A DNA stretch of 36,628 nt, taken from the IMG/VR virus record IMGVR_UViG_3300020050_011359, positions 1-36,628 of that record; one strand, given 5' to 3'. Shown in pieces: positions 1 through 36,628 of the stretch. The notes beneath the pieces were generated by a model. The model saw only the letters and a list, made by a program, of their open reading frames with translations, made no database searches and was not told the origin of the DNA. Within the stretch, counting starts at the first letter, position 1; each line of letters opens with the position of its first letter. This DNA is from a virus. Position numbers and translations under genes: made by a program.

Positions 1-121
1 GGCAATGGATACGATGTTCTTGAGCTAGAAGTTGACGTAAATTGATACGTTTTCTTTTGTTGTGGAAAACACCTAGCTTGTCTTAATTCTTCGCATACTT
101 GGATAAGTAAATGTTTTACTT
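1..121. repeat. Terminal direct repeat, left copy (identical to 36508..36628)
   Basis: Read base by base: ggcaatggatacg...aaatgttttactt is present at both window ends, 121/121 nt. It lies inside an open reading frame, so it looks like a circular-assembly overlap or circular permutation rather than a non-coding physical end. Confidence 0.95.
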
Positions 122-2887: not shown

Positions 2888-3295
2888 TTAAGCCTCTTTA
2901 GCTACAACATAAACACCAAAATCAGTTGATGACAATCTAACTATTAACGCCCCAGCTGCTGCTGCAGTTGTAACCGCTGCGCCATCAGTTCCGCCATTAA
3001 GCTTAATTGTTGCTGTTGGTGGGAAAATATTTAATGCGTTCGCTCCATTATTCTGTACAAAGCCAATCTGACCAATCGGCCAAAGTGGTGGAAGTTTAAC
3101 GCCTGTCGATGCTGCAACAGTTGATAGTACTGAAGTAAAAGCTGTTAACTGTAATGCATCAGTGATTGTTGTCCCTGTTGCCGTTAATCCAGTTGCAACC
3201 GATCTTGTTGGTGCATTTGGAATGCTATCTGTTCCAATTACATTTGCAATTTCGGGGTGCATCCCTAGCCCAACTAATTCTGTAACTTTGCTCAT
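2888..3295 (-). CDS. Hypothetical virion-module protein, 135 aa (Ala/Thr/Gly-rich)
   Basis: ORF packed 3 nt from the downstream gene and 1 nt from the upstream gene in the late operon. Confidence 0.65.
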   Translation of the reverse strand: MSKVTELVGLGMHPEIANVIGTDSIPNAPTRSVATGLTATGTTITDALQLTAFTSVLSTVAASTGVKLPPLWPIGQIGFVQNNGANALNIFPPTATIKLNGGTDGAAVTTAAAAGALIVRLSSTDFGVYVVAKEA

Positions 3296-3296
3296 T

Positions 3297-3632
3297 TTAT
3301 TTACCTTTTATAAAAATTTCTTGTTCTTTTGGCTCGTCATTCTCTTCATCAAAGAAACTTGCTCTTGTTATTTCTGGCGCAATATCTTCTTTGATTTTTT
3401 CTTCTTCTACGTATGGAGGAATTTCTATCTCTTTACTATCTTCAAGTAAAAAAGCTTCATACTCTTTTGGATATGATTTAATAGTTGCTTCATCAACTTC
3501 ACCCTCAAGAATATCTTCTTGAGGCAAATTATTCACAATTCGAAAATTACCAGTTCGAAATTTAAACATATGGATCGTTTTCTCTGAAAGTCCATCTGCT
3601 AAAATTCTTTTTGCTTTATAAAACTCAATCAT
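3297..3632 (-). CDS. Acidic hypothetical protein, 111 aa
   Basis: ORF with a 1-nt start/stop overlap at 3632. The C-terminal half is strongly Glu/Asp-rich. Confidence 0.6.
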   Translation of the reverse strand: MIEFYKAKRILADGLSEKTIHMFKFRTGNFRIVNNLPQEDILEGEVDEATIKSYPKEYEAFLLEDSKEIEIPPYVEEEKIKEDIAPEITRASFFDEENDEPKEQEIFIKGK

Positions 3633-4998: not shown

Positions 4999-6009
4999 TT
5001 AATCAAAACCAACCCAGTTAAACTTAGCTAATCCGCCAATAGTTGCTGCTGTCATAGTGAACAACAATCTTGATACTGCTGCTTGGTCTTGTGAATTAAC
5101 AGGCTCGAGCATGTCGAACTCTGCTTTATCGTGAAACACGATATTAACCCCGCCTTCTTCTACACAAAGAATGTAACTTCTTGTTGCAGTTAATGCAGAA
5201 TATCCAGAGTAGTTAATACCACCACCAAGATAAACATCAGCACCGCGATACTTGATTTTTTGAAATCCAGCTTCGCCTGTTCCGGTGTTGTCATTAATTA
5301 TTTGTATTGCTTGAGTTGCTTGAGTTAAGTATTCAAAATGAGTGTTACCTGCATAGATAACTTGTTTCATTCTTTTTCCACCGCGAGTTGTTGCGTTGAT
5401 ACCTTTATCGTAAAATCTCTTGATGTTACCAGGAGAAGTTGCGCCTTCTGACCAATCAGAAGCAGTATCGAATTTTTGATTTCTAAACCATGCAGCGTTT
5501 GCGCTTGATCTATCAATTCCACCGACTGTCCCAGTTGTTGGAGTTGTTGAAACCAATGATGCAAGCCCAATTAATTGCAATCCTGAGTAACCTGTTCCGT
5601 TAGAAAGAAAACCTTCTTGGAATTGGTTCATCATTGTTGCTTCTGCAGCTTTATATTTTGCTCCGATAATATCGAAGTATTGTGTTTGCGCTCCGCCACT
5701 GTTTTTATATCTTTCTGCAAGTGACCAAGTAACCGCACAAAGCATGTATCTCCAGTCAAATACTGCAGAATCAACGACTTTAGTATCATTTATTGACACT
5801 TGTCCTGTTTCTCCAACCCATGTGCTGGTTGAGTTTGGTGCTGTGATTGCTGATTCTACGATTTGAGAACCACCTGCGATTCTTCGAACCCCGCCTGCTG
5901 CTTGCATTAAGTCATAACCTGGAATGTTATCACTTACCGCATCTTTTAATACCTTGCTTCTTGCAAGCCCTGTTACTGTGGCTAATTGCCCTAGTCCTAC
6001 GTCTGCCAT
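4999..6009 (-). CDS. Major capsid protein, 336 aa (HK97-fold type inferred)
   Basis: ORF directly downstream of a charged scaffold-like gene and followed by a hairpin. Size and composition are typical of an MCP, and the GGIDRS...WFRN segment is familiar from phage capsid families. No search was run. Confidence 0.75.
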   Translation of the reverse strand: MADVGLGQLATVTGLARSKVLKDAVSDNIPGYDLMQAAGGVRRIAGGSQIVESAITAPNSTSTWVGETGQVSINDTKVVDSAVFDWRYMLCAVTWSLAERYKNSGGAQTQYFDIIGAKYKAAEATMMNQFQEGFLSNGTGYSGLQLIGLASLVSTTPTTGTVGGIDRSSANAAWFRNQKFDTASDWSEGATSPGNIKRFYDKGINATTRGGKRMKQVIYAGNTHFEYLTQATQAIQIINDNTGTGEAGFQKIKYRGADVYLGGGINYSGYSALTATRSYILCVEEGGVNIVFHDKAEFDMLEPVNSQDQAAVSRLLFTMTAATIGGLAKFNWVGFD

Positions 6010-6015
6010 TTTAAA

Positions 6016-7140
6016 TTACCCTCTGTTTTTTAGCTGTTCATAAGCCCATTTTGCAGTTGCTCTTGGATCGTTAGATCTAAGAGCTTCTGGTGGAGGATTG
6101 AAATTAAGTGCGCCAACTGAGGCTGGTGAACTCTTCCCTCTAACCGTAACTGCAGCTTGAGCCGCTCTTTGTTGAATTTGATTATTATTAGCTGTTAGAG
6201 GTCGAGTTTGTACTGGTGTGCTTTGAGGGATTGAACCTCCCCATAGTGCTTGACGCTTTTCTTCAGTTGCCTGTCTTAAAGCATCGCCCCATGAAAGGCT
6301 GGGATCGGAATCTCTCAAAGAACTAACTCGCGTTTTCAAACTTAAGAGGTAATCTCCGTCCTGCAATTCAGGGTACCTGTAATTGCCAGAGGCTGGATCA
6401 ATCTCTTGCTGTACGCTTCTCATCTGATTAACGATCGGTTCTGCCTCTCGATCAGTTTGAGATTGTTCTATAGTAGAGGTAACAGAATTTAGCTTTTCCT
6501 GTAAAGCTCTAAATTCAGGATGTTGAGCAATATCAAAATTTCCTGTTTGTTGTAAACCTTGAAGCGCTTCTGCTGCAGCTTCTTCTTCAATATGTCCAAG
6601 ATTTACACCAAGTTTTATGTATTCAGCACGAGAAGTTTGAGGATTAGTAAGCTTTTCTTGAGCACGAATAAGTGACTCAAAAACATGCTTTTCTGTAGGA
6701 AAATGCTCGTTTATTAATGGTTTTGCAAGTGAGGTTATTTCTTGTTTCTCTCTTGCTGCCTGTTCAATTGCTCTACTTCCTCCACCTTCGACATCTTTAA
6801 TTGTTCGATTGAACGCTCTTTTTAATCCTGCTGGTAAGTTATTAAAAAGCTTTGCCTCTTGTGGTTTTAATCTAGCAGGTGGGAGTAGCTCAGGATCCTG
6901 CTCTTGCTTTGCTTTCTTTTCAGGCTGAATCTTTTCTTCAGAAGGTTTATCTTCTTTTTGAAGTTTTTCAAATTCTCTCTTTGCTGTTTCTCTAGGGCTT
7001 TCATCTTTATTTGGCGTGTCAATTTCCTCACTCTTTTCAGGAGTGGGTACCTCTAAACTTTCATCTTGTTTAATCTCTGATTCAGTAGTTTCTACTACCT
7101 CGCCCACGTTGTTTTCTGTCTCTGTTGATAAGCTTTCCAT
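6016..7140 (-). CDS. Scaffolding protein, 374 aa
   Basis: Highly charged Glu/Lys/Gln-rich, helix-prone ORF immediately upstream of the MCP. The ATG at 7140 is preceded by agagaggaaagaga (SD-like). Confidence 0.65.
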   Translation of the reverse strand: MESLSTETENNVGEVVETTESEIKQDESLEVPTPEKSEEIDTPNKDESPRETAKREFEKLQKEDKPSEEKIQPEKKAKQEQDPELLPPARLKPQEAKLFNNLPAGLKRAFNRTIKDVEGGGSRAIEQAAREKQEITSLAKPLINEHFPTEKHVFESLIRAQEKLTNPQTSRAEYIKLGVNLGHIEEEAAAEALQGLQQTGNFDIAQHPEFRALQEKLNSVTSTIEQSQTDREAEPIVNQMRSVQQEIDPASGNYRYPELQDGDYLLSLKTRVSSLRDSDPSLSWGDALRQATEEKRQALWGGSIPQSTPVQTRPLTANNNQIQQRAAQAAVTVRGKSSPASVGALNFNPPPEALRSNDPRATAKWAYEQLKNRG

Positions 7141-15770: not shown

Positions 15771-15820
15771 TGCTTAGGATTGATTATACTAGCTATAAAA
15801 CAATATTCTAATATCAAAGA

Positions 15821-16110
15821 CAATAATAGTATAATAGTACAATAATAGTACTTTTTCTCTGCTGGTAAAAAAACGTCTCAAACACTGTTTTAAAACATGT
15901 AAGTTATTAATATATATATAATATTATATATAAATATATATTATAATAAAATAATAATAGTATAATAGTACAATAGTACCATAGAGCACTTCCCTTTTAG
16001 AACCGAGGGTAAAGAAAGTGCTCTATGATACTATTGTACTATTATACTATAATTAATGAATCCAATGGGTTACAACGTTTTTTTGTACTATTATTGTACT
16101 ATTATTGTAC
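15821..16110. repeat. Origin-like block: ATAATAGTAC iterons in both orientations, a 56-nt pure A/T tract and a 35-bp-arm inverted repeat
   Basis: Forward 10-mers start at 15823, 15831, 15842, 15954, 15962 and 15970. Reverse copies (GTACTATTAT) start at 16028, 16036, 16085 and 16096. 15831..15851 is the exact reverse complement of 16085..16105. 15904..15959 is A/T only. 15957..15991 pairs with 16016..16050 (34/35). Confidence 0.6.
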
Positions 16111-16238
16111 GATTCTGATTTTTTTGCTGTGTCTTGTGCTGAAATAGAACTTAGTTTTGATTCTTCAACTGCCTGGTGAATAATTGCTCGAGCTAATTTC
16201 TCAATCTCGTTTTCTGACAGTTCGTCAATTGATTTCAT
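16053..16238 (-). CDS. Hypothetical protein, 61 aa (internal ATG of track ORF 16053..16334)
   Basis: The ATG at 16238 lies 5 nt past the TAG (16243..16245) of the upstream ATPase gene. The 3' end of this ORF runs through the right-hand iterons, so it may not be real. Confidence 0.35.
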   Translation of the reverse strand: MKSIDELSENEIEKLARAIIHQAVEESKLSSISAQDTAKKSESYNNSTIIVQKNVVTHWIH

Positions 16239-19385: not shown

Positions 19386-19852
19386 TGAGCGATTTTGATA
19401 AATATGACATAGAAAATTTTGAAGAAGTAACACGCGAGCGAGTAGCCGAAGGTGAATATAATCTTGAAATAATCGATGCAAGCATGGATGAAAAGGACGA
19501 ACTAGTTTTAGTAAAAGTAAAATATGGAATTATTGGCGGAAAGTTTGAAGGGCAATGGCTGTTTGATAATTTTGCAATCTTATGTTTAGCAAATAAAGAT
19601 AGGCAAAATATCGGCAAAGCAATGTTTAAAAGACTGCGTGAGTCTGTTGGTTTAAGCGAAGTTAAAAATGTAAGCGAGCTGATTGGCAAGAAATTGAGAG
19701 CCGAACTTGTTTGGAATGGTAAATTCAATAATCTTAAAAACTATAATGCATTTAATATTAATTCTTATCTTGATGAAAAAAATGCCGAGGTTAGTTCAGG
19801 CTTTGAAGATATGCCGGATAAAGAGGACGATAGTGACGACATTCCTTTCTAA
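19385..19852 (+). CDS. SSB-like (DUF669-type) protein with a bacterial-SSB acidic tail, 155 aa
   Basis: The pattern EGEYNLEIID...VKVKYGIIGGKFEGQWLFDNF fits DUF669. The C-terminus DKEDDSDDIPF matches the DDDIPF partner-binding tip of bacterial SSB. ATGA overlap with the ATPase gene. Confidence 0.6.
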   Translation: MSDFDKYDIENFEEVTRERVAEGEYNLEIIDASMDEKDELVLVKVKYGIIGGKFEGQWLFDNFAILCLANKDRQNIGKAMFKRLRESVGLSEVKNVSELIGKKLRAELVWNGKFNNLKNYNAFNINSYLDEKNAEVSSGFEDMPDKEDDSDDIPF

Positions 19853-19876
19853 AATGGTATTGCAATTCCGTTTTAA

Positions 19877-19920
19877 ATATGACATGCTATGATTATGAAA
19901 AAATGTATAGCATGTCATAT
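19877..19920 (+). promoter_or_regulatory. Perfect 14-bp inverted repeat bracketing the HNH gene start codons
   Basis: atatgacatgctat (19877..19890) and atagcatgtcatat (19907..19920) are exact reverse complements. The 16-nt spacer holds the ATG at 19895, and the ATG at 19889 starts in the left arm. Confidence 0.5.
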
Positions 19921-20356
19921 AGAAAAACCTTTAGATAATTTTCATAAACATCCGCAAATGAAAGATGGACATTTAAATAAATGCAAAGTATGCGTTAATT
20001 TATATGTTCATCAATACAGAAAAGACAATCTAGAATCTATAAGGAAGTATGATCGAGAGAGGGGAAGAACTGAGAAACGTCTTTTTTTAAATAGGGAAAG
20101 AATTAAAAAAAAGAAAAAAGAATATACTGCAATAGGTATTAGATGGAGAGAGCGTAATCCTGATAAAAGAGCGGCGCATGTAATATTGGGTAATGCTGTT
20201 AGAGATAGGCGCATTTTTAAACAACCATGTGAAGTTTGTGGAAATATTAAAGTTGATGGGCATCACGATGATTATACTAAACCACTTGAAGTTAGATGGT
20301 TATGCAGAAAACACCACAAAGAACTTCATAGAAAATATACAGACATCCCTTTCTGA
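19889..20356 (+). CDS. HNH (His-Me finger)/zinc-ribbon protein, 155 aa; paralog of 26458..26859
   Basis: N-terminal CxxC...CxxC. C-terminal KQPCEVCG...GHHDDYTKPLEVRWLCRKHHKELH is the common phage HNH pattern. It ends ...KYTDIPF. Confidence 0.65.
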   Translation: MIMKKCIACHIEKPLDNFHKHPQMKDGHLNKCKVCVNLYVHQYRKDNLESIRKYDRERGRTEKRLFLNRERIKKKKKEYTAIGIRWRERNPDKRAAHVILGNAVRDRRIFKQPCEVCGNIKVDGHHDDYTKPLEVRWLCRKHHKELHRKYTDIPF

Positions 20357-20369
20357 TTGATTGAAACCC

Positions 20370-20402
20370 GTGTTAGCCGAGCGGGGACGATTCGGCTATT
20401 TA
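20370..20402 (+). promoter_or_regulatory. Conserved intergenic motif, copy 1 (GTGTTAGCCGAGC-N9-TCGGC-TATTTA)
   Basis: The 13-mer gtgttagccgagc (20370..20382) recurs at 24469, and with 1 mismatch at 24369. The dyad is tagccga/tcggcta. TTAGCC and TATTTA are spaced like -35/-10 elements. It lies 14 nt after the HNH stop. Confidence 0.45.
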
Positions 20403-20403
20403 T

Positions 20404-20489
20404 GAGCGAGCGACTATGCGCGATAAGGGCTATATATGTTTATAGTTTTTGGACGGCCAGTAACCAATCTGGCCTCGCTCTCTTTTTTT
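20404..20489 (+). ncRNA. Candidate structured small RNA (cloverleaf-like, about 77 nt, plus U-tract)
   Basis: A 7-bp closing stem, gagcgag (20404..20410) with ctcgctc (20474..20480). Internal hairpins are tat/ata, ctata/tatag (20430..20445) and ggccag/ctggcc (20455..20474). These are followed by tc+TTTTTTT (20483..20489). Confidence 0.35.
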
Positions 20490-20505
20490 ATTTGAGGAAA
20501 TAATT

Positions 20506-20682
20506 ATGAGTTGTTTAGGCTATTGTGATGAATGCGGTGAATATGATCGATTAGTTCGATGCTACAAAAATATTTTAATTGATGGCCCGATATTGCTTTG
20601 TTCGGAATGTGAAGTTGAATTCGATGATTTAATGATGAAAGTCTTAACTAAAAAGGAGAACGAGGTTGAGGAAAATATATGA
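20506..20682 (+). CDS. Small zinc-ribbon protein, 58 aa (below the ORF-track cutoff)
   Basis: Hand translation gives MSCLGYCDECGEYDRLVRCYKNILIDGPILLCSECEVEFDDLMMKVLTKKENEVEENI. SD gaggaa lies upstream. ATGA overlap with the next gene at 20679..20682. Confidence 0.6.
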   Translation: MSCLGYCDECGEYDRLVRCYKNILIDGPILLCSECEVEFDDLMMKVLTKKENEVEENI

Positions 20683-20885
20683 GTAGAAAAATAATACAAA
20701 TAACATCTTCATGTTGCAGTGACATGAATGGTTCAGATCTCTTTTTTTTAGACGCTTTATGCGACGATGGTACGGTTTGGGAATATATGCCAACAACTGA
20801 TAGTTGGTTTAAGCTTTCTGATATTCCTCAAGACGAAGAAAAACCACAAGAGGTATTAAATGGAAAAGAGTGTATTGTCAGATAG
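20679..20885 (+). CDS. Hypothetical protein, 68 aa
   Basis: ORF coupled by ATGA to the upstream zinc-ribbon ORF. Confidence 0.55.
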   Translation: MSRKIIQITSSCCSDMNGSDLFFLDALCDDGTVWEYMPTTDSWFKLSDIPQDEEKPQEVLNGKECIVR

Positions 20886-21114
20886 AGAAGTTCTTAAAGC
20901 GTTCATGGATTTTAGAATTCAAATAAAGTGGTTAGAAGCCGAGAATCTAATGTTACGGGAAAGAGTGATAAAAGAAGAAGGCTATGAATCTAAAGCATGG
21001 CAAGCTGGCTGGGATAATTGCAGTAAAAAAAGACGTGACCGCGACAAATGCTTCAATTATCAGGAGTGGAAAAAAAGACAACACACTTTAGAATATTCAA
21101 GAAGAGATATATGA
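20860..21114 (+). CDS. Hypothetical protein, 84 aa
   Basis: The ATG at 20860 is preceded by agaggt (SD). It overlaps the upstream ORF by 26 nt. Confidence 0.55.
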   Translation: MEKSVLSDREVLKAFMDFRIQIKWLEAENLMLRERVIKEEGYESKAWQAGWDNCSKKRRDRDKCFNYQEWKKRQHTLEYSRRDI

Positions 21115-21392
21115 GCCGAACATTTACATGTGATATATGCGGGACGCATAGATGGGATACGGAAAATAATTGTCCTGTTTGTATAGGGCATTGCGAAAAA
21201 ACCGAAGATGAAAAGAAATACGAAATAATCGAGCCTTATATATGCCAAAAATGCCATAAAACATATGGGAAAACAAATTTAGAATATGAGAAATGCGCCA
21301 TATATGTAACGTGTGACTGTGGTTCTAAGGAGGAGATTTATATAGTAAACACTAACAACATTAAAACCACTTTAATCGTTGACAACTTGTAA
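21111..21392 (+). CDS. Cys-rich (multi-CxxC) zinc-finger-like protein, 93 aa
   Basis: I prefer the ATG at 21111 (ATGA overlap with the upstream stop) over the track start at 21048. The sequence is MSRTFTCDICG...CPVCIGHC...CQKCH...CDCG. Confidence 0.55.
   Translation: MSRTFTCDICGTHRWDTENNCPVCIGHCEKTEDEKKYEIIEPYICQKCHKTYGKTNLEYEKCAIYVTCDCGSKEEIYIVNTNNIKTTLIVDNL
21369..21386 (+). repeat. 18-bp direct repeat, left copy (actttaatcgttgacaac)
   Basis: Identical 18-mer at 21678..21695. Both contain TTGACA. Together they bracket the 95-aa ORF. Confidence 0.9.
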
Positions 21393-21396
21393 CCAT

Positions 21397-21684
21397 ATGA
21401 CAAAACCATACGTAAGATTAATAGACCCCTTCCCTTATCCGTCAATTAACGGATTAAAAGCCCTCCCTGAAAAATATTATTGGGTTGGCTACATTAAAAA
21501 CCGTAGACATATCAGCGAAGATATAGAAAACGAAGAAGAAGCATTAGGCAAATTTTTAACATTAAAGAGTAAATATAAGTCAGCTTTTATGCTTCTCATT
21601 AATGCACCAACAGTTGGAACGCTAGGCGGAATTGATAGATCGAACACTAGTGATCATCGTTGGTTCAGGAATAATAAACTTTAA
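21397..21684 (+). CDS. Hypothetical early protein, 95 aa, with a capsid-derived C-terminal peptide
   Basis: I prefer the ATG at 21397 (the track uses TTG at 21379). The C-terminus PTVGTLGGIDRSNTSDHRWFRNNKL parallels MCP residues PTTGTVGGIDRSSANAAWFRNQKF. The DNA core ggcggaattgatagatc (21625..21641) matches the MCP gene at 16/17 positions. Confidence 0.55.
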   Translation: MTKPYVRLIDPFPYPSINGLKALPEKYYWVGYIKNRRHISEDIENEEEALGKFLTLKSKYKSAFMLLINAPTVGTLGGIDRSNTSDHRWFRNNKL

Positions 21685-21695
21685 TCGTTGACAAC
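21678..21695 (+). repeat. 18-bp direct repeat, right copy
   Basis: Identical to 21369..21386. Confidence 0.9.
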
Positions 21696-21716
21696 AAACA
21701 ACAATCAACGTATAAG
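21688..21716 (+). promoter_or_regulatory. Sigma70-type promoter candidate
   Basis: TTGACA (21688..21693), a 17-nt spacer, then TATAAG (21711..21716). It lies 26 nt upstream of the ATG at 21742, which has an aaaggaa SD. Confidence 0.45.
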
Positions 21717-21741
21717 ATAACAAACCATAAAGGAAATAAAT

Positions 21742-22041
21742 ATGAAACAATTTGTAATTAGACATGGAGATGTGATTGTCCGTTCAACAAACGAAACAAT
21801 TCAAGGTAAAGAGAAAAAAGATAAGGCGTTAGCTTATGGAGAAGTGACAGGACATTCACATAGAATGAAGGGTAATTCTCAAGTTTTTGAGTTTAACAAT
21901 AAAATGTATTTAAAAGTTTTGTCAGAATTAGATTGTTTGACTCATGAAGAACACGGCAATATTGAAATTCCTCAAGGAGATTATGAGGTAATCATTCAGC
22001 GTGATTATATTCCAGGCGGATGGGTAAAGGTTATTGATTAA
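21742..22041 (+). CDS. Hypothetical protein, 99 aa (GEVTGHSH...HEEHG motif)
   Basis: ORF with a good SD. The His-rich motifs GEVTGHSH and THEEHG recall a recurrent phage family of unknown function. Confidence 0.6.
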   Translation: MKQFVIRHGDVIVRSTNETIQGKEKKDKALAYGEVTGHSHRMKGNSQVFEFNNKMYLKVLSELDCLTHEEHGNIEIPQGDYEVIIQRDYIPGGWVKVID

Positions 22042-22062
22042 TAAAAATATAATTGGGGATAT

Positions 22063-23187
22063 ATGAAAAAAATTGAGACACTAACGGAAGAGCAAAAAGC
22101 AAAATTTCCAGAATATGTAAATAAGTGGATCAGTATTGGATTAAGCACTGAAAACCCTAGTAAGGAAGTTGCACAAAATTCAATTATAAAAGTTTATGAA
22201 TCAGCAGGGGTGCCCGCCCCAAAAACTTTTATTTGGGTTGAATCCCCTCTACATGCAGGAGTTTGTTATGCTTTATTAAAAGATAATAAGTTGGCTTCTG
22301 TCGGGGCTTCTCTCAGGGCTTCTGTCTGGGATTCTGTCTGGGATTCTGTCTGGGATTCTGTCGGGGCTTCTGTCAGGGATTCTGTCTGGGATTCTGTCGG
22401 GGCTTCTGTCGGGGCTTCTGTCTGGGATTCTGTCTGGGATTCTGTCGGGGCTTCTGTCGCGGATTCTGTCAGGGATTCTGTCAGGGCTTCTGTCGGGGAT
22501 TCTGTCAGGGATTCTGTCAGGGATTCTGTCTGGGCTTCTGTCTGGGATTCTGTCGGGGATTCTCTCAGGGATTCTTGCTATGGATCTCATGATGCTAATT
22601 GGCTTGCATTTTACAAGTATATGCATGACGAATTAAATGTTGATTGCTCTAAGCTTAATGGATTATGGGAAGCGGCAGAAAATTGTGGTTGGTTTATTCC
22701 TTTTGAAAATATTGTAATCATTTCTCCAAAACCTTATCAAATTAAAACAAAACTAAACGATAGAGGGCACCATATTTTACATGCTGATGGCGAGCCTGCT
22801 GTTTTTTATTGTAATGATTTTAAAATTTATTCTCGTGAAGGAATTAGAATTCCTGAAAAGTATGGCTCTGTTAAGGCAGAAGACTGGAAAGCGGAATGGT
22901 TCATTGAAGAAACTAACGTAGAAATCAAAAGATTAATAGCTGAAGCTATTGGATATGAGAAATTATTTGATGCTTTAAATGCAAAGGAAATTTCTCAACA
23001 TAGAGAATATAAATTATACAGAGCCGAAAATGTCGACGTAGAACCAATGCATATACTTACAATGATATGTCCTTCTACTAAGAAAATACATTACGGGAGA
23101 GTGCCTCCGACAATAACAAGCGCAAGAGAGGCAGCAACCTGGAGAAACCAAGGCATTGAGCCTGAAAGTTTTATGGTGGAACAATAA
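22063..23187 (+). CDS. Tetrapeptide-repeat protein, 374 aa: N-domain, 24 x [A/D]-S-[V/L]-[W/G/R/A] repeats, then a ~200-aa C-domain
   Basis: The ORF contains the 288-nt tandem repeat. The C-terminal domain (DANWLAFYKY...GEPAVFY...VPPTITSAREAATW) resembles a widespread bacterial/phage family of unknown function that I recall but cannot verify here. Confidence 0.7.
   Translation: MKKIETLTEEQKAKFPEYVNKWISIGLSTENPSKEVAQNSIIKVYESAGVPAPKTFIWVESPLHAGVCYALLKDNKLASVGASLRASVWDSVWDSVWDSVGASVRDSVWDSVGASVGASVWDSVWDSVGASVADSVRDSVRASVGDSVRDSVRDSVWASVWDSVGDSLRDSCYGSHDANWLAFYKYMHDELNVDCSKLNGLWEAAENCGWFIPFENIVIISPKPYQIKTKLNDRGHHILHADGEPAVFYCNDFKIYSREGIRIPEKYGSVKAEDWKAEWFIEETNVEIKRLIAEAIGYEKLFDALNAKEISQHREYKLYRAENVDVEPMHILTMICPSTKKIHYGRVPPTITSAREAATWRNQGIEPESFMVEQ
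22294..22581 (+). repeat. In-frame tandem repeat, 24 units of 12 nt (consensus GMTTCTGTCNGG)
   Basis: Read directly: gcttctgtcggg / gattctgtctgg / gattctgtcaggg-type units follow back to back. They encode ASVG ASLR ASVW DSVW DSVW DSVG ... DSLR DSCY. Confidence 0.95.
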
Positions 23188-24501: not shown

Positions 24502-24572
24502 GGGGAGTTAGCAAAGTGGTAAATGTCGGAGATAACATCTTTAAGTCGTTGGTTCGATTCCAACACTTCCCC
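24502..24572 (+). tRNA. tRNA-like gene with a shortened anticodon arm (possible degenerate tRNA; AAC in the anticodon position)
   Basis: Acceptor ggggagt/acttccc (7 bp, one G-U), U8, D-arm gcaa-agtggtaa-atgt with GG, T-arm gttgg-ttcgatt-ccaac, and a 5-nt variable loop. The anticodon arm is only 15 nt: either a 6-bp stem with triloop AAC, or a 4-bp stem with loop aUAACAu. No CCA is encoded. Confidence 0.45.
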
Positions 24573-35853: not shown

Positions 35854-36628
35854 TAGTAACTCCAACCTCCCAAAGTAGCCGGTCTAAATCGTGGCCCCCA
35901 TGTTCCATATCTTGTCAAACTTCCTCTATTAGTCCCCTTCCATCTGTTAACCGACTGTTCAATTCTTGATAAAAATTCATTCACGAAATCTGCATAACCA
36001 TCATATCTTTTGACCTCGTACCATCTCGCCTTAAGTCCAAGAATTACTAAGTCATCATCAAACATGCATAAGTCTGTATTTGCTAACATTGTTTCATATG
36101 GTTCATCGTAAAGTGTCCAGGTAACTGTACCATCAACTCCCGCCCCTGTTGGTGGTGTTGTTGAGGTTGTTCCGCCTGCAGTTGTAAAAAGATTTACGCC
36201 GTTTACATTTCTATATGAAGATGCAGCAATAACAGTTGATGGTGTCCAGTTAGGTGGTAAGAAAAGATTTTTAGTAATGTATTGATACGTTCCAATTTGG
36301 TCTTTTGGTAATGCAGGATTAACATTAAATTGTCCGCCTGCAGTATTTGGATTTGCATCACTACCAAATATTCTAAATGCTGTAATATAGCTGCTCGATG
36401 CAATCACATTCAATCTATACGCAAAATCTGCGTCACTTCCATTATAAAGTGGAAGGTGAGTTGTTGAATTATATTCAGTATCAAGAAGTGGTGAATAGAA
36501 ATCTTTCGGCAATGGATACGATGTTCTTGAGCTAGAAGTTGACGTAAATTGATACGTTTTCTTTTGTTGTGGAAAACACCTAGCTTGTCTTAATTCTTCG
36601 CATACTTGGATAAGTAAATGTTTTACTT
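35853..36628 (-). CDS. 3' part (C-terminal ~258 aa) of the wrap-around 293-aa virion gene; the 5' end is at 227..122 across the junction
   Basis: See feature 1..227. The frame is open to the window end. The track's TTG at 36512 is internal. Confidence 0.7.
   Translation of the reverse strand, partial: VKHLLIQVCEELRQARCFPQQKKTYQFTSTSSSRTSYPLPKDFYSPLLDTEYNSTTHLPLYNGSDADFAYRLNVIASSSYITAFRIFGSDANPNTAGGQFNVNPALPKDQIGTYQYITKNLFLPPNWTPSTVIAASSYRNVNGVNLFTTAGGTTSTTPPTGAGVDGTVTWTLYDEPYETMLANTDLCMFDDDLVILGLKARWYEVKRYDGYADFVNEFLSRIEQSVNRWKGTNRGSLTRYGTWGPRFRPATLGGWSY
36508..36628. repeat. Terminal direct repeat, right copy (identical to 1..121)
   Basis: 121/121 identity, read directly. Confidence 0.95.

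Follow-up and report, generated by a model that had tools for sequence, protein, structure and literature searches.

A 95-residue open reading frame, ORF95, of the 36,628-nucleotide virus sequence IMGVR_UViG_3300020050_011359 (IMG/VR; the whole stretch analysed, hereafter the window) ends in 26-29 residues that, judging by sequence comparison, show homology with the hallmark loop of the family to which the phage's own major capsid protein (MCP) belongs. ORF95 is a mobile, dispensable accessory gene of the replication/early operon that is selectively maintained, and it occupies a 309-bp cassette delimited by two copies of an 18-bp direct repeat. It is tentatively proposed that its product would act as a molecular mimic, competing for a partner of the capsid loop. 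The segments compared are:

21397..21684, plus strand: ORF95, a 95-residue accessory protein with a predicted ββαβ core (residues 26-69) and a low-confidence N-terminus and tail
21592..21681, plus strand: MCP-like C-terminal tail, ORF95 residues 66-95 (LINAPTVGTLGGIDRSNTSDHRWFRNNKL), aligned to the MCP
4999..6009, minus strand: MCP gene, 336 residues, HK97 fold, NF033394 capsid_maj_Podo
5470..5556, minus strand: MCP residues 152-180 (LVSTTPTTGTVGGIDRSSANAAWFRNQKF), the hallmark loop, nearly invariant in the family

Similarity between the ORF95 tail and the major capsid protein

Alignment places ORF95 residues 66-94 against MCP residues 152-179, with 10 of 12 positions identical in one block and five of seven in the other, while a DNA core shared by the two genes, GG(C/T)GGAATTGATAGATC, is identical at 16 of 17 positions. 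These values reproduce those of a first-pass annotation of the window, which had also quoted the 95-residue frame between the repeats as it is encoded. The Smith-Waterman score of ORF95 against the MCP is 80, compared with 27.6±4.3 and 28.3±4.5 in two sets of 2000 shuffles, none of which exceeded 59; the similarity stands after the shuffled-sequence comparison that the annotation had proposed as a check. The MCP is also the top match of ORF95 (80, next best 36) among the 215 stop-to-stop open reading frames of at least 50 residues found in the six frames of the window, a set that corrects for the implicit scan of the whole window, over which the best score of shuffled ORF95 is 41.8±4.4 (maximum 57). 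Alignment of the ORF95 family with 42 MCPs using hhalign returned a probability of 96.9% and an E-value of 2e-10 (ORF95 residues 69-95 on MCP residues 155-180), and BLASTP with composition adjustment recovered only a shorter segment of 19 residues (E = 0.005). The remainder of ORF95 does not resemble the MCP significantly, as the annotation had stated.

Identification of the opposite-strand gene as an MCP, likewise proposed at first pass, is borne out at the levels of sequence and fold. Profile searches assign the protein to PHROG 9953 (“major head protein”, 3.6e-42) and, above cutoff, to NCBIfam NF033394 (capsid_maj_Podo, 3e-46); its AlphaFold2 model, with a mean predicted local distance difference test (pLDDT) score of 72, matches HK97-fold capsids (HK97, T7, gene transfer agent (GTA) and cyanophages) with a Foldseek probability of 1.00. 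A sequence search found no solved structure for the MCP family. The nearest cultured members of this MCP clade are 23-31% identical and include Myxococcus phages Mx8/Mx9, Brucella phage Tb and Stenotrophomonas phage BUCT555, among others.

In the MCP model the hallmark loop lies between the spine helix (residues 114-135) and the first A-domain helix (residues 196-206). It is modelled with low confidence, the pLDDT falling below 50 at residues 156-159 and 171-185, with ten-residue block means of roughly 46-58 across residues 151-190. Across 42 MCP homologues (56-96% identical) most positions of the segment L152-F180 are at least 90% conserved and about eight vary; T155, P157, W174 and R176 are invariant. 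A scan of IMG/VR with a degenerate DNA pattern for G-T-x-G-G-I-D-[RS] returned at least 119 loci, and among the matches listed nearly all lie at about residue 160 of open reading frames 320-400 residues long. The motif occupies this position in at least 93 distinct, diverse MCP sequences. Among the 93 distinct sequences listed, conservation extends outside the search pattern to L at -8 (73%), P at -3 (75%) and T at -2 (56%), and to an [FWY]W-R-N block that comes after the motif. Since positions that were not part of the pattern are conserved too, the segment constitutes a hallmark loop, GT[VLI]GGIDR…[FWY]WRN, of a large podovirus MCP clade, and it is kept across MCPs that are otherwise only 25-31% identical.

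The ORF95 family, selection and predicted structure

A search of a collection of 5.8 billion proteins returned ORF95 itself and nothing else, and phmmer against 1.84 billion representatives revealed one true homologue, termed P0123 (92 residues, 46-51% identical, E = 5.6e-15). A second match, P0124, is a PAS-repeat protein whose E-value of 9.6e-13 is summed over six repeats, and it was judged to be repeat-summed noise. Queried with the upstream and downstream proteins, the ORF95 family alignment or a degenerate VGYIKNRR pattern, IMG/VR yielded no relatives, tblastn of ORF95 against deposited phages gave nothing credible, and neither ORF95 nor P0123 matched a family in Pfam, PHROG or NCBIfam. 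PADLOC likewise gave no match to ORF95, as expected for a phage gene.

P0123 derives from a different metagenome, where it is encoded on a 1.5-kb contig directly before the terminase genes and thus at a genomic position different from that of ORF95, and its gene has a GAGG ribosome-binding site of its own. The large terminase of this contig is 78% identical to those of two ORF95-bearing genome types, which places P0123 in the same phage group. Its tail, PTTGTVGGIDR followed by WYRK, is identical to the MCP at 11 of 11 positions of the first block and is closer to the MCP consensus than that of ORF95. As with ORF95, the best match of P0123 in the window is the MCP (70, next best 42).

Between ORF95 and P0123 the overall proportions of non-synonymous (pN) and synonymous (pS) differences are 0.38 and 0.72, with synonymous sites saturated and a dN/dS of ~0.2. 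By region, pN declines from 0.53 in the N-terminus to 0.34 in the core and 0.24 in the tail, where pS is 0.84. Saturation at synonymous sites combined with low pN indicates that the reading frame is under purifying selection, with the strongest constraint on the MCP-like tail. A separate variant, P0002 (contig L012, JGI 3300020049), carries two nucleotide changes, both non-synonymous and both in the MCP-like tail; they replace S85 by N and F90, the F of WFRN, by V (ORF95 codons 85 and 90).

AlphaFold2 predicts for ORF95 a ββαβ core of 44 residues (26-69; pLDDT ~90), flanked by an N-terminus (residues 1-21) and a tail (residues 73-95) of low confidence. Foldseek found no significant match for the model (best E-value 0.55), and an HK97 fold was not observed in it. 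As only 26-29 residues are shared, ORF95 is not a member of the MCP family.

Two further resemblances to the MCP were noted. The proposal that ORF95 is a rearranged mini-MCP was rejected as unproven: ORF95 residues 7-32 against the MCP C-terminus score 33, a value equalled in 78 of 2000 shuffles. Residues 1-26 of P0123 (contig L011, positions 1-80) resemble MCP residues 127-152, just before the hallmark loop, with a score of 45 that was reached by 16 of 2000 shuffles, and hhalign of the N-terminal part of the family against the MCP selects the same 127-152 region (E = 0.044, probability 1.2%). If this likeness is real, the family would be an MCP fragment (residues 127-180) into which a ββαβ core had been inserted.

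A 309-bp cassette bounded by 18-bp repeats

The elements that define the cassette, and the genes on either side of it, are:

21369..21386, plus strand: direct repeat copy 1, 18 bp, inside the 3' end of the Zn-ribbon gene, where it encodes T-L-I-V-D-N
21678..21695, plus strand: direct repeat copy 2, 18 bp, which gives ORF95 its last codon (CTT) and stop (TAA)
21387..21695 (equivalently 21369-21677), plus strand: cassette, 309 bp, present in the window and precisely absent from contigs L027 and L029
21111..21392, plus strand: upstream Zn-ribbon gene, 93 residues (113 residues where ORF95 is absent)
21742..22041, plus strand: downstream 99-residue gene, PHROG 27831 (replaced by an unrelated 106-residue gene in the other ORF95-bearing class)

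Exactly two copies of the repeat, ACTTTAATCGTTGACAAC, are present in the window, both at the positions given by the first-pass annotation, and their number stays at two when three mismatches are allowed. Two or more matches were found in none of 100 dinucleotide-preserving shuffles, and the 18-mer ranks as the third-longest exact direct repeat of the genome, tandem arrays excluded. The upstream gene runs in frame through copy 1 (…T-L-I-V-D-N-L-stop).

Looking up the downstream 99-residue protein brought to light two Logan contigs, L027 and L029, whose flanks are 99-100% identical to the window and which carry a single copy of the 18-mer and no ORF95. Positions 1915-2954 of L027 correspond to window 20346-21386 and positions 2937-3609 to window 21678-22350, the two alignments overlapping by the 18-mer. 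These single-copy empty sites reveal that the repeats bound a precise 309-bp presence/absence polymorphism, and their occurrence in near-identical contigs implies that ORF95 is dispensable. In both contigs the Zn-ribbon gene reads through the single copy to give, as expected from the sequence, a protein of 113 residues and overlaps the start of the next gene. The sample from which L029 comes contains an identical MCP; nothing thus suggests that losing ORF95 calls for a change in the MCP.

The repeats are therefore the boundaries of an indel cassette and of a mosaic junction, and no by-product of copying from the MCP gene. The simplest reading is a deletion, through slippage or recombination between the copies; the result is an awkward read-through fusion, and the filled state occurs in several backgrounds. 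Insertion by homologous recombination with a donor, for which the upstream gene would serve as left arm and the 18-mer as the right one, fits the boundary at 21695/21696 equally well. Origin from a transposon with target-site duplication was rejected: the cassette ends have no terminal inverted repeats, there is no transposase, and only ORF95 is encoded.

TTGACA occurs in copy 2, and a -10-like hexamer stands 17 nt beyond it, TATAAG in the window and TATAAA in the other genome class; TATAAG lacks the T at position 6 required by the promoter scan and is accordingly unlisted there. No -10 element was found at 16-18 nt in copy 1, and no terminator-like site in 21300-21750. A weak inverted repeat (9 of 11 positions) pairs 21681-21691 with 21705-21715 and has no T-run. 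The 18-mer gave no match in IMG/VR, and 13 single matches in JGI metagenomes, whose flanks are unrelated and which lack protein-level similarity to the window, were treated as chance.

Spread across diverged genomes

At least 19 contigs, drawn from many samples, encode a protein identical to ORF95, and at all 10 loci examined the reading frame is 100% identical in nucleotides and both repeat copies are present. The identity extends over one block:

21184..21695, plus strand: invariant block, 100% nucleotide identity at all 10 loci examined

Outside this block the ORF95-bearing genomes are 70-80% identical. Their backgrounds comprise two replication modules (AAA_24/DUF669 or PrimPol/Enc34-SSB/PDDEXK), two variants of the upstream gene and two unrelated downstream genes of 99 and 106 residues. 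To the right, the mosaic boundary coincides exactly with the end of copy 2, the first mismatch being at 21696. A conserved RNA structure was considered as the cause of the identity and rejected, the region having no Rfam match and a fold z-score of -1.4.

The first-pass annotation had suggested asking whether relatives keep the fusion and the repeats, and had taken relatives without the frame as a mark of a neutral scar. Fusion and both repeats are kept at the 10 loci and the tail is kept in P0123, while L027 and L029 have a single repeat and no ORF95. Relatives that lack the gene thus exist and speak for its dispensability; they are no proof of neutrality, given that diverged genomes carry the invariant block at 100% identity.

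Genome of the carrier phage

ORF95 is carried by a podovirus-like phage of ~36.5 kb with a GC content of 37.6%. Window positions 1-121 and 36508-36628 overlap exactly over 121 bp, which marks the window as a complete genome of this size, assembled as a circle. Megablast of the locus against 50,697 phage records gave no match. The sole match of the MCP profile in GTDB genomes was a 3.3-kb contig binned to a Saccharibacteria metagenome-assembled genome, which is uninformative on the host. No integrase or other lysogeny module was found among the genes of the window. Early expression of ORF95 is inferred only from its position in the plus-strand replication operon.

Possible function of ORF95

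ORF95 would be a small ββαβ domain displaying a flexible MCP-loop peptide. As the shared segment is not confidently folded in either protein, it is probably a linear peptide that becomes ordered only on a partner. The protein would then compete by molecular mimicry for whatever binds the hallmark loop on unassembled MCP, a mechanism to which a probability of about 40% is tentatively given. The most likely target would be a host abortive-infection or immune sensor that recognises the constrained loop, so that ORF95, made before the MCP appears, would serve as a competitive anti-defence decoy. Taken in this specific form, with the phage's own capsid loop presented on a scaffold and saturating a host sensor early without activating it, the proposal is doubtful; a sensor decoy was ranked first because ORF95 is dispensable, patchy and recently spread at 100% identity into diverged genomes. 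The 18-bp repeat may act as a short portable homology arm: recombination between both copies would delete the gene, while recombination of donor copy 2 with the single copy of a recipient would install it.

Several observations weigh against this proposal. ORF95 is not preceded by a Shine-Dalgarno sequence and its ATG lies 4 nt past the upstream stop, so its translation would depend on coupling. The family comprises only two lineages, and the evidence for selection is thus a single comparison, while the low confidence of the tail rests on an AlphaFold2 run that used a three-sequence alignment. The indel fits a deletion and an insertion alike. We know of no defence system that reads the hallmark loop. 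A peptide identical to the trigger might activate a sensor instead of blocking it, and the T4 Gol peptide by itself activates Lit. Finally, conservation of the loop in very divergent MCPs suggests that its primary partner is a component of capsid assembly.

This last point favours a different function, also doubtful, in which ORF95 would be a capsid-assembly modulator or poison whose tail binds the acceptor site of the hallmark loop, be it on the MCP, on the putative scaffold (6016-7140) or on a neighbouring subunit. Such a protein would delay or cap polymerisation of the phage's own capsid, or else be dominant-negative against co-infecting relatives or satellites with the same MCP clade. Retention of the loop in MCPs that are 25-31% identical points to an intrinsic assembly role and a capsid partner, its poor modelling in the monomer is what would be expected if it became ordered only on assembly, and inhibition of virion assembly is known in inter-phage defence (Tab, PMC10884400). 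However, near-identical phages exist without the gene, one of them from a sample with an identical MCP, which argues that ORF95 is not needed for assembly of the phage's own capsid; a poison would strike the capsid of its producer too, and the lack of an integrase or lysogeny module among the window genes leaves no route to prophage-based exclusion. Improbable, in turn, is that ORF95 would be a packaging or targeting signal, co-assembled into the procapsid and then injected, or else a liability that offers capsid sensors an extra trigger. The presence/absence polymorphism between near-identical genomes speaks in its favour, an extra trigger would explain the deletion of ORF95 in some lineages, and CapRel senses an MCP and an unrelated small phage protein (PMC11578894). 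Yet ORF95 sits in the early/replication operon and not among virion genes, and a pure liability would neither keep a conserved tail in P0123 nor spread at 100% identity.

A recombination scar had been one of two options in the first-pass annotation, the other being an expressed capsid-peptide mimic made early. As a neutral remnant, ORF95 would be an MCP fragment caught in a junk frame by illegitimate recombination, its identity across genomes reflecting recent hitch-hiking. That only two lineages occur in more than 1.8 billion representative proteins, that ORF95 has no Shine-Dalgarno sequence, that the cassette is dispensable and that the 10 ORF95 loci together with P0002 give no within-lineage sign of constraint would all agree with this view. 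It is nevertheless quite improbable, and the scar option in its neutral form was not upheld: P0123 keeps both an intact frame at ~50% identity and the tail despite saturated synonymous sites, dN/dS is ~0.2 with the lowest pN in the tail, the core of ORF95 is confidently folded in the predicted model, and the gene for P0123 possesses a ribosome-binding site of its own and occupies another genomic position. The interpretation offered at first pass is, as a whole, partly supported. That the MCP resemblance reflects chance or low complexity, for which the composition-adjusted BLASTP result (just E = 0.005 over 19 residues) might be cited, has next to no probability, given that none of 4000 shuffles reached the observed score, that the similarity survived correction for the whole window and gave E = 2e-10 in hhalign, and that P0123, from an independent sample, also best-matches the MCP (70 versus 42).

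Were the sensor-decoy proposal true, ORF95 would be the first case of an anti-defence protein made as a copy of the very epitope that acts as trigger, and host defences would be reading GT[VLI]GGIDR…[FWY]WRN as a molecular pattern of a large podovirus MCP clade. If the tail mimics the loop, ORF95 would more generally be a natural case of a phage duplicating a constrained capsid epitope into an early accessory protein, and would provide an experimental route to whatever reads or binds the best-conserved loop of this large MCP clade, which is structurally uncharacterised. Literature searches on phage capsid-derived decoys and dominant negatives yielded no precedent, and no phage protein that copies the conserved loop of its own capsid. 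The window genome and the L027/L029 type form a natural isogenic pair that differs by the precise 309-bp cassette, which makes the hypothesis testable, given a host. The clean empty site and the repeat boundary document an 18-bp repeat moving a gene between diverged phage genomes.

Neighbouring genes and other features of the window

The upstream Zn-ribbon gene is itself mosaic, its homologues sharing the first ~25 residues (MSRTFTCDICGTHRWDTE.NCP.C) followed by unrelated C-termini. A second repeat-bounded cassette was observed at window 19832-20356. It contains a gene of 155 residues (19889-20356) with an HNH-endonuclease-like motif, DGHHDDY…CRKHHKELH, and no Pfam match at 1e-3. The ends are marked by an imperfect 15-bp direct repeat, GACATTCCTTTCTAA at ~19838-19852 and GACATCCCTTTCTGA at ~20342-20356, and the gene ends in DIPF*, as does the preceding gene for a single-stranded DNA-binding protein (SSB)-like DUF669 protein (…DDSDDIPF*). 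The architecture is that of the ORF95 cassette, the 3' end of the upstream gene being duplicated at the 3' end of the extra gene, and the whole 155-residue gene is missing from L027 and L029.

Further downstream, the gene for a DUF6745 protein (22063-23187) contains ~30 tandem 12-bp units at 22233-22635 that encode SVWD/SVGA/SVRD tetrapeptides. The number of repeats differs between near-identical genomes, giving proteins of 430 residues in L001, 358 in L003 and 374 in the window. Contig L028 (JGI 3300020037) joins window 21631-22359 to 21094-19520 in inverted orientation, within the tandem-repeat region; the junction is either an assembly chimera or a real rearrangement. An AT-rich region between divergent operons (15817-16126) displays iterated and inverted copies of AATAGTATAATAGTACAATA, its longest inverted repeat having 45-nt arms that are 91% complementary, and it is probably an operator or origin region. 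A tRNA gene lies on the plus strand at 24502-24572 within the early/replication block (Rfam RF00005, 44.4 bits).

Comparison with known systems

The cassette resembles the PeSL (promoter-early stem-loop) cassettes of T4-type phages, in which small non-essential ORFans are bracketed by repeats (Arbiol et al. 2010, PMC2839356). In both, a non-essential ORFan lies between short direct repeats that carry a sigma-70-like element, a putative one in the ORF95 cassette, the frame is present or absent between near-identical genomes, the repeats coincide with indel or replacement boundaries, and recombination between repeats explains loss, gain and shuffling into other backgrounds. In contrast to PeSLs, which are numerous and scattered through hyperplastic regions, the ORF95 repeat is only 18 bp long and has two copies per genome, has no terminator stem-loop, and has a -10-like hexamer that lacks the canonical final T; copy 1 lies within coding sequence, and the genome is podovirus-like, of ~36.5 kb. 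Of the four defining features of PeSLs that were examined, only the coincidence of repeats and indel boundaries was clearly shared; with no stem-loop, two copies only and an uncertain promoter, the ORF95 cassette works like a PeSL cassette but is not one. It is also similar to phage morons and accessory hotspots in being a single extra gene, dispensable and exchanged, between genes that are adjacent in a close relative; it differs from them in that no promoter/terminator pair of its own was shown and in that the empty site, with its duplicated 18-mer, is unusually clean.

At the level of the proposed mechanism, the closest parallels come from proteins that sense phage structural components. 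DSAD1 inhibits the DSR2 sensor, for which it and the tail-tube protein compete (PMC11087589). ORF95 would likewise be a small phage protein occupying the sensor site that recognises a virion structural protein, and is distinguished from DSAD1 by carrying a homologous copy of that protein's own loop. To our knowledge, no sequence similarity between DSAD1 and the tube protein has been reported. CapRelSJ46 is directly activated by an MCP (PMC9712102). Together with Gol/Lit, this system provides examples of a short constrained MCP segment, or of the MCP itself, being read by a host defence, and small phage proteins can address the same CapRelSJ46 sensor (PMC9712102, PMC11578894). Unlike the proposed ORF95 decoy, the proteins in these systems are triggers and not antagonists, and no phage-encoded second copy of a trigger peptide was found described.

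The strategy would have counterparts in another domain of life. Copying of an epitope or target is known from eukaryotic virus-host conflicts, where vaccinia K3L is a pseudosubstrate that mimics eIF2α, and Fv1 and enJS56A1 are capsid-derived. ORF95 would share with these the use of a copy or fragment of the target or capsid as a competitor or dominant-negative; Fv1 is host-encoded and K3L mimics a host protein, whereas ORF95 would be the case of a virus copying its own capsid loop. ORF95 is accordingly best classed as an accessory gene, or moron, that putatively acts by molecular mimicry.

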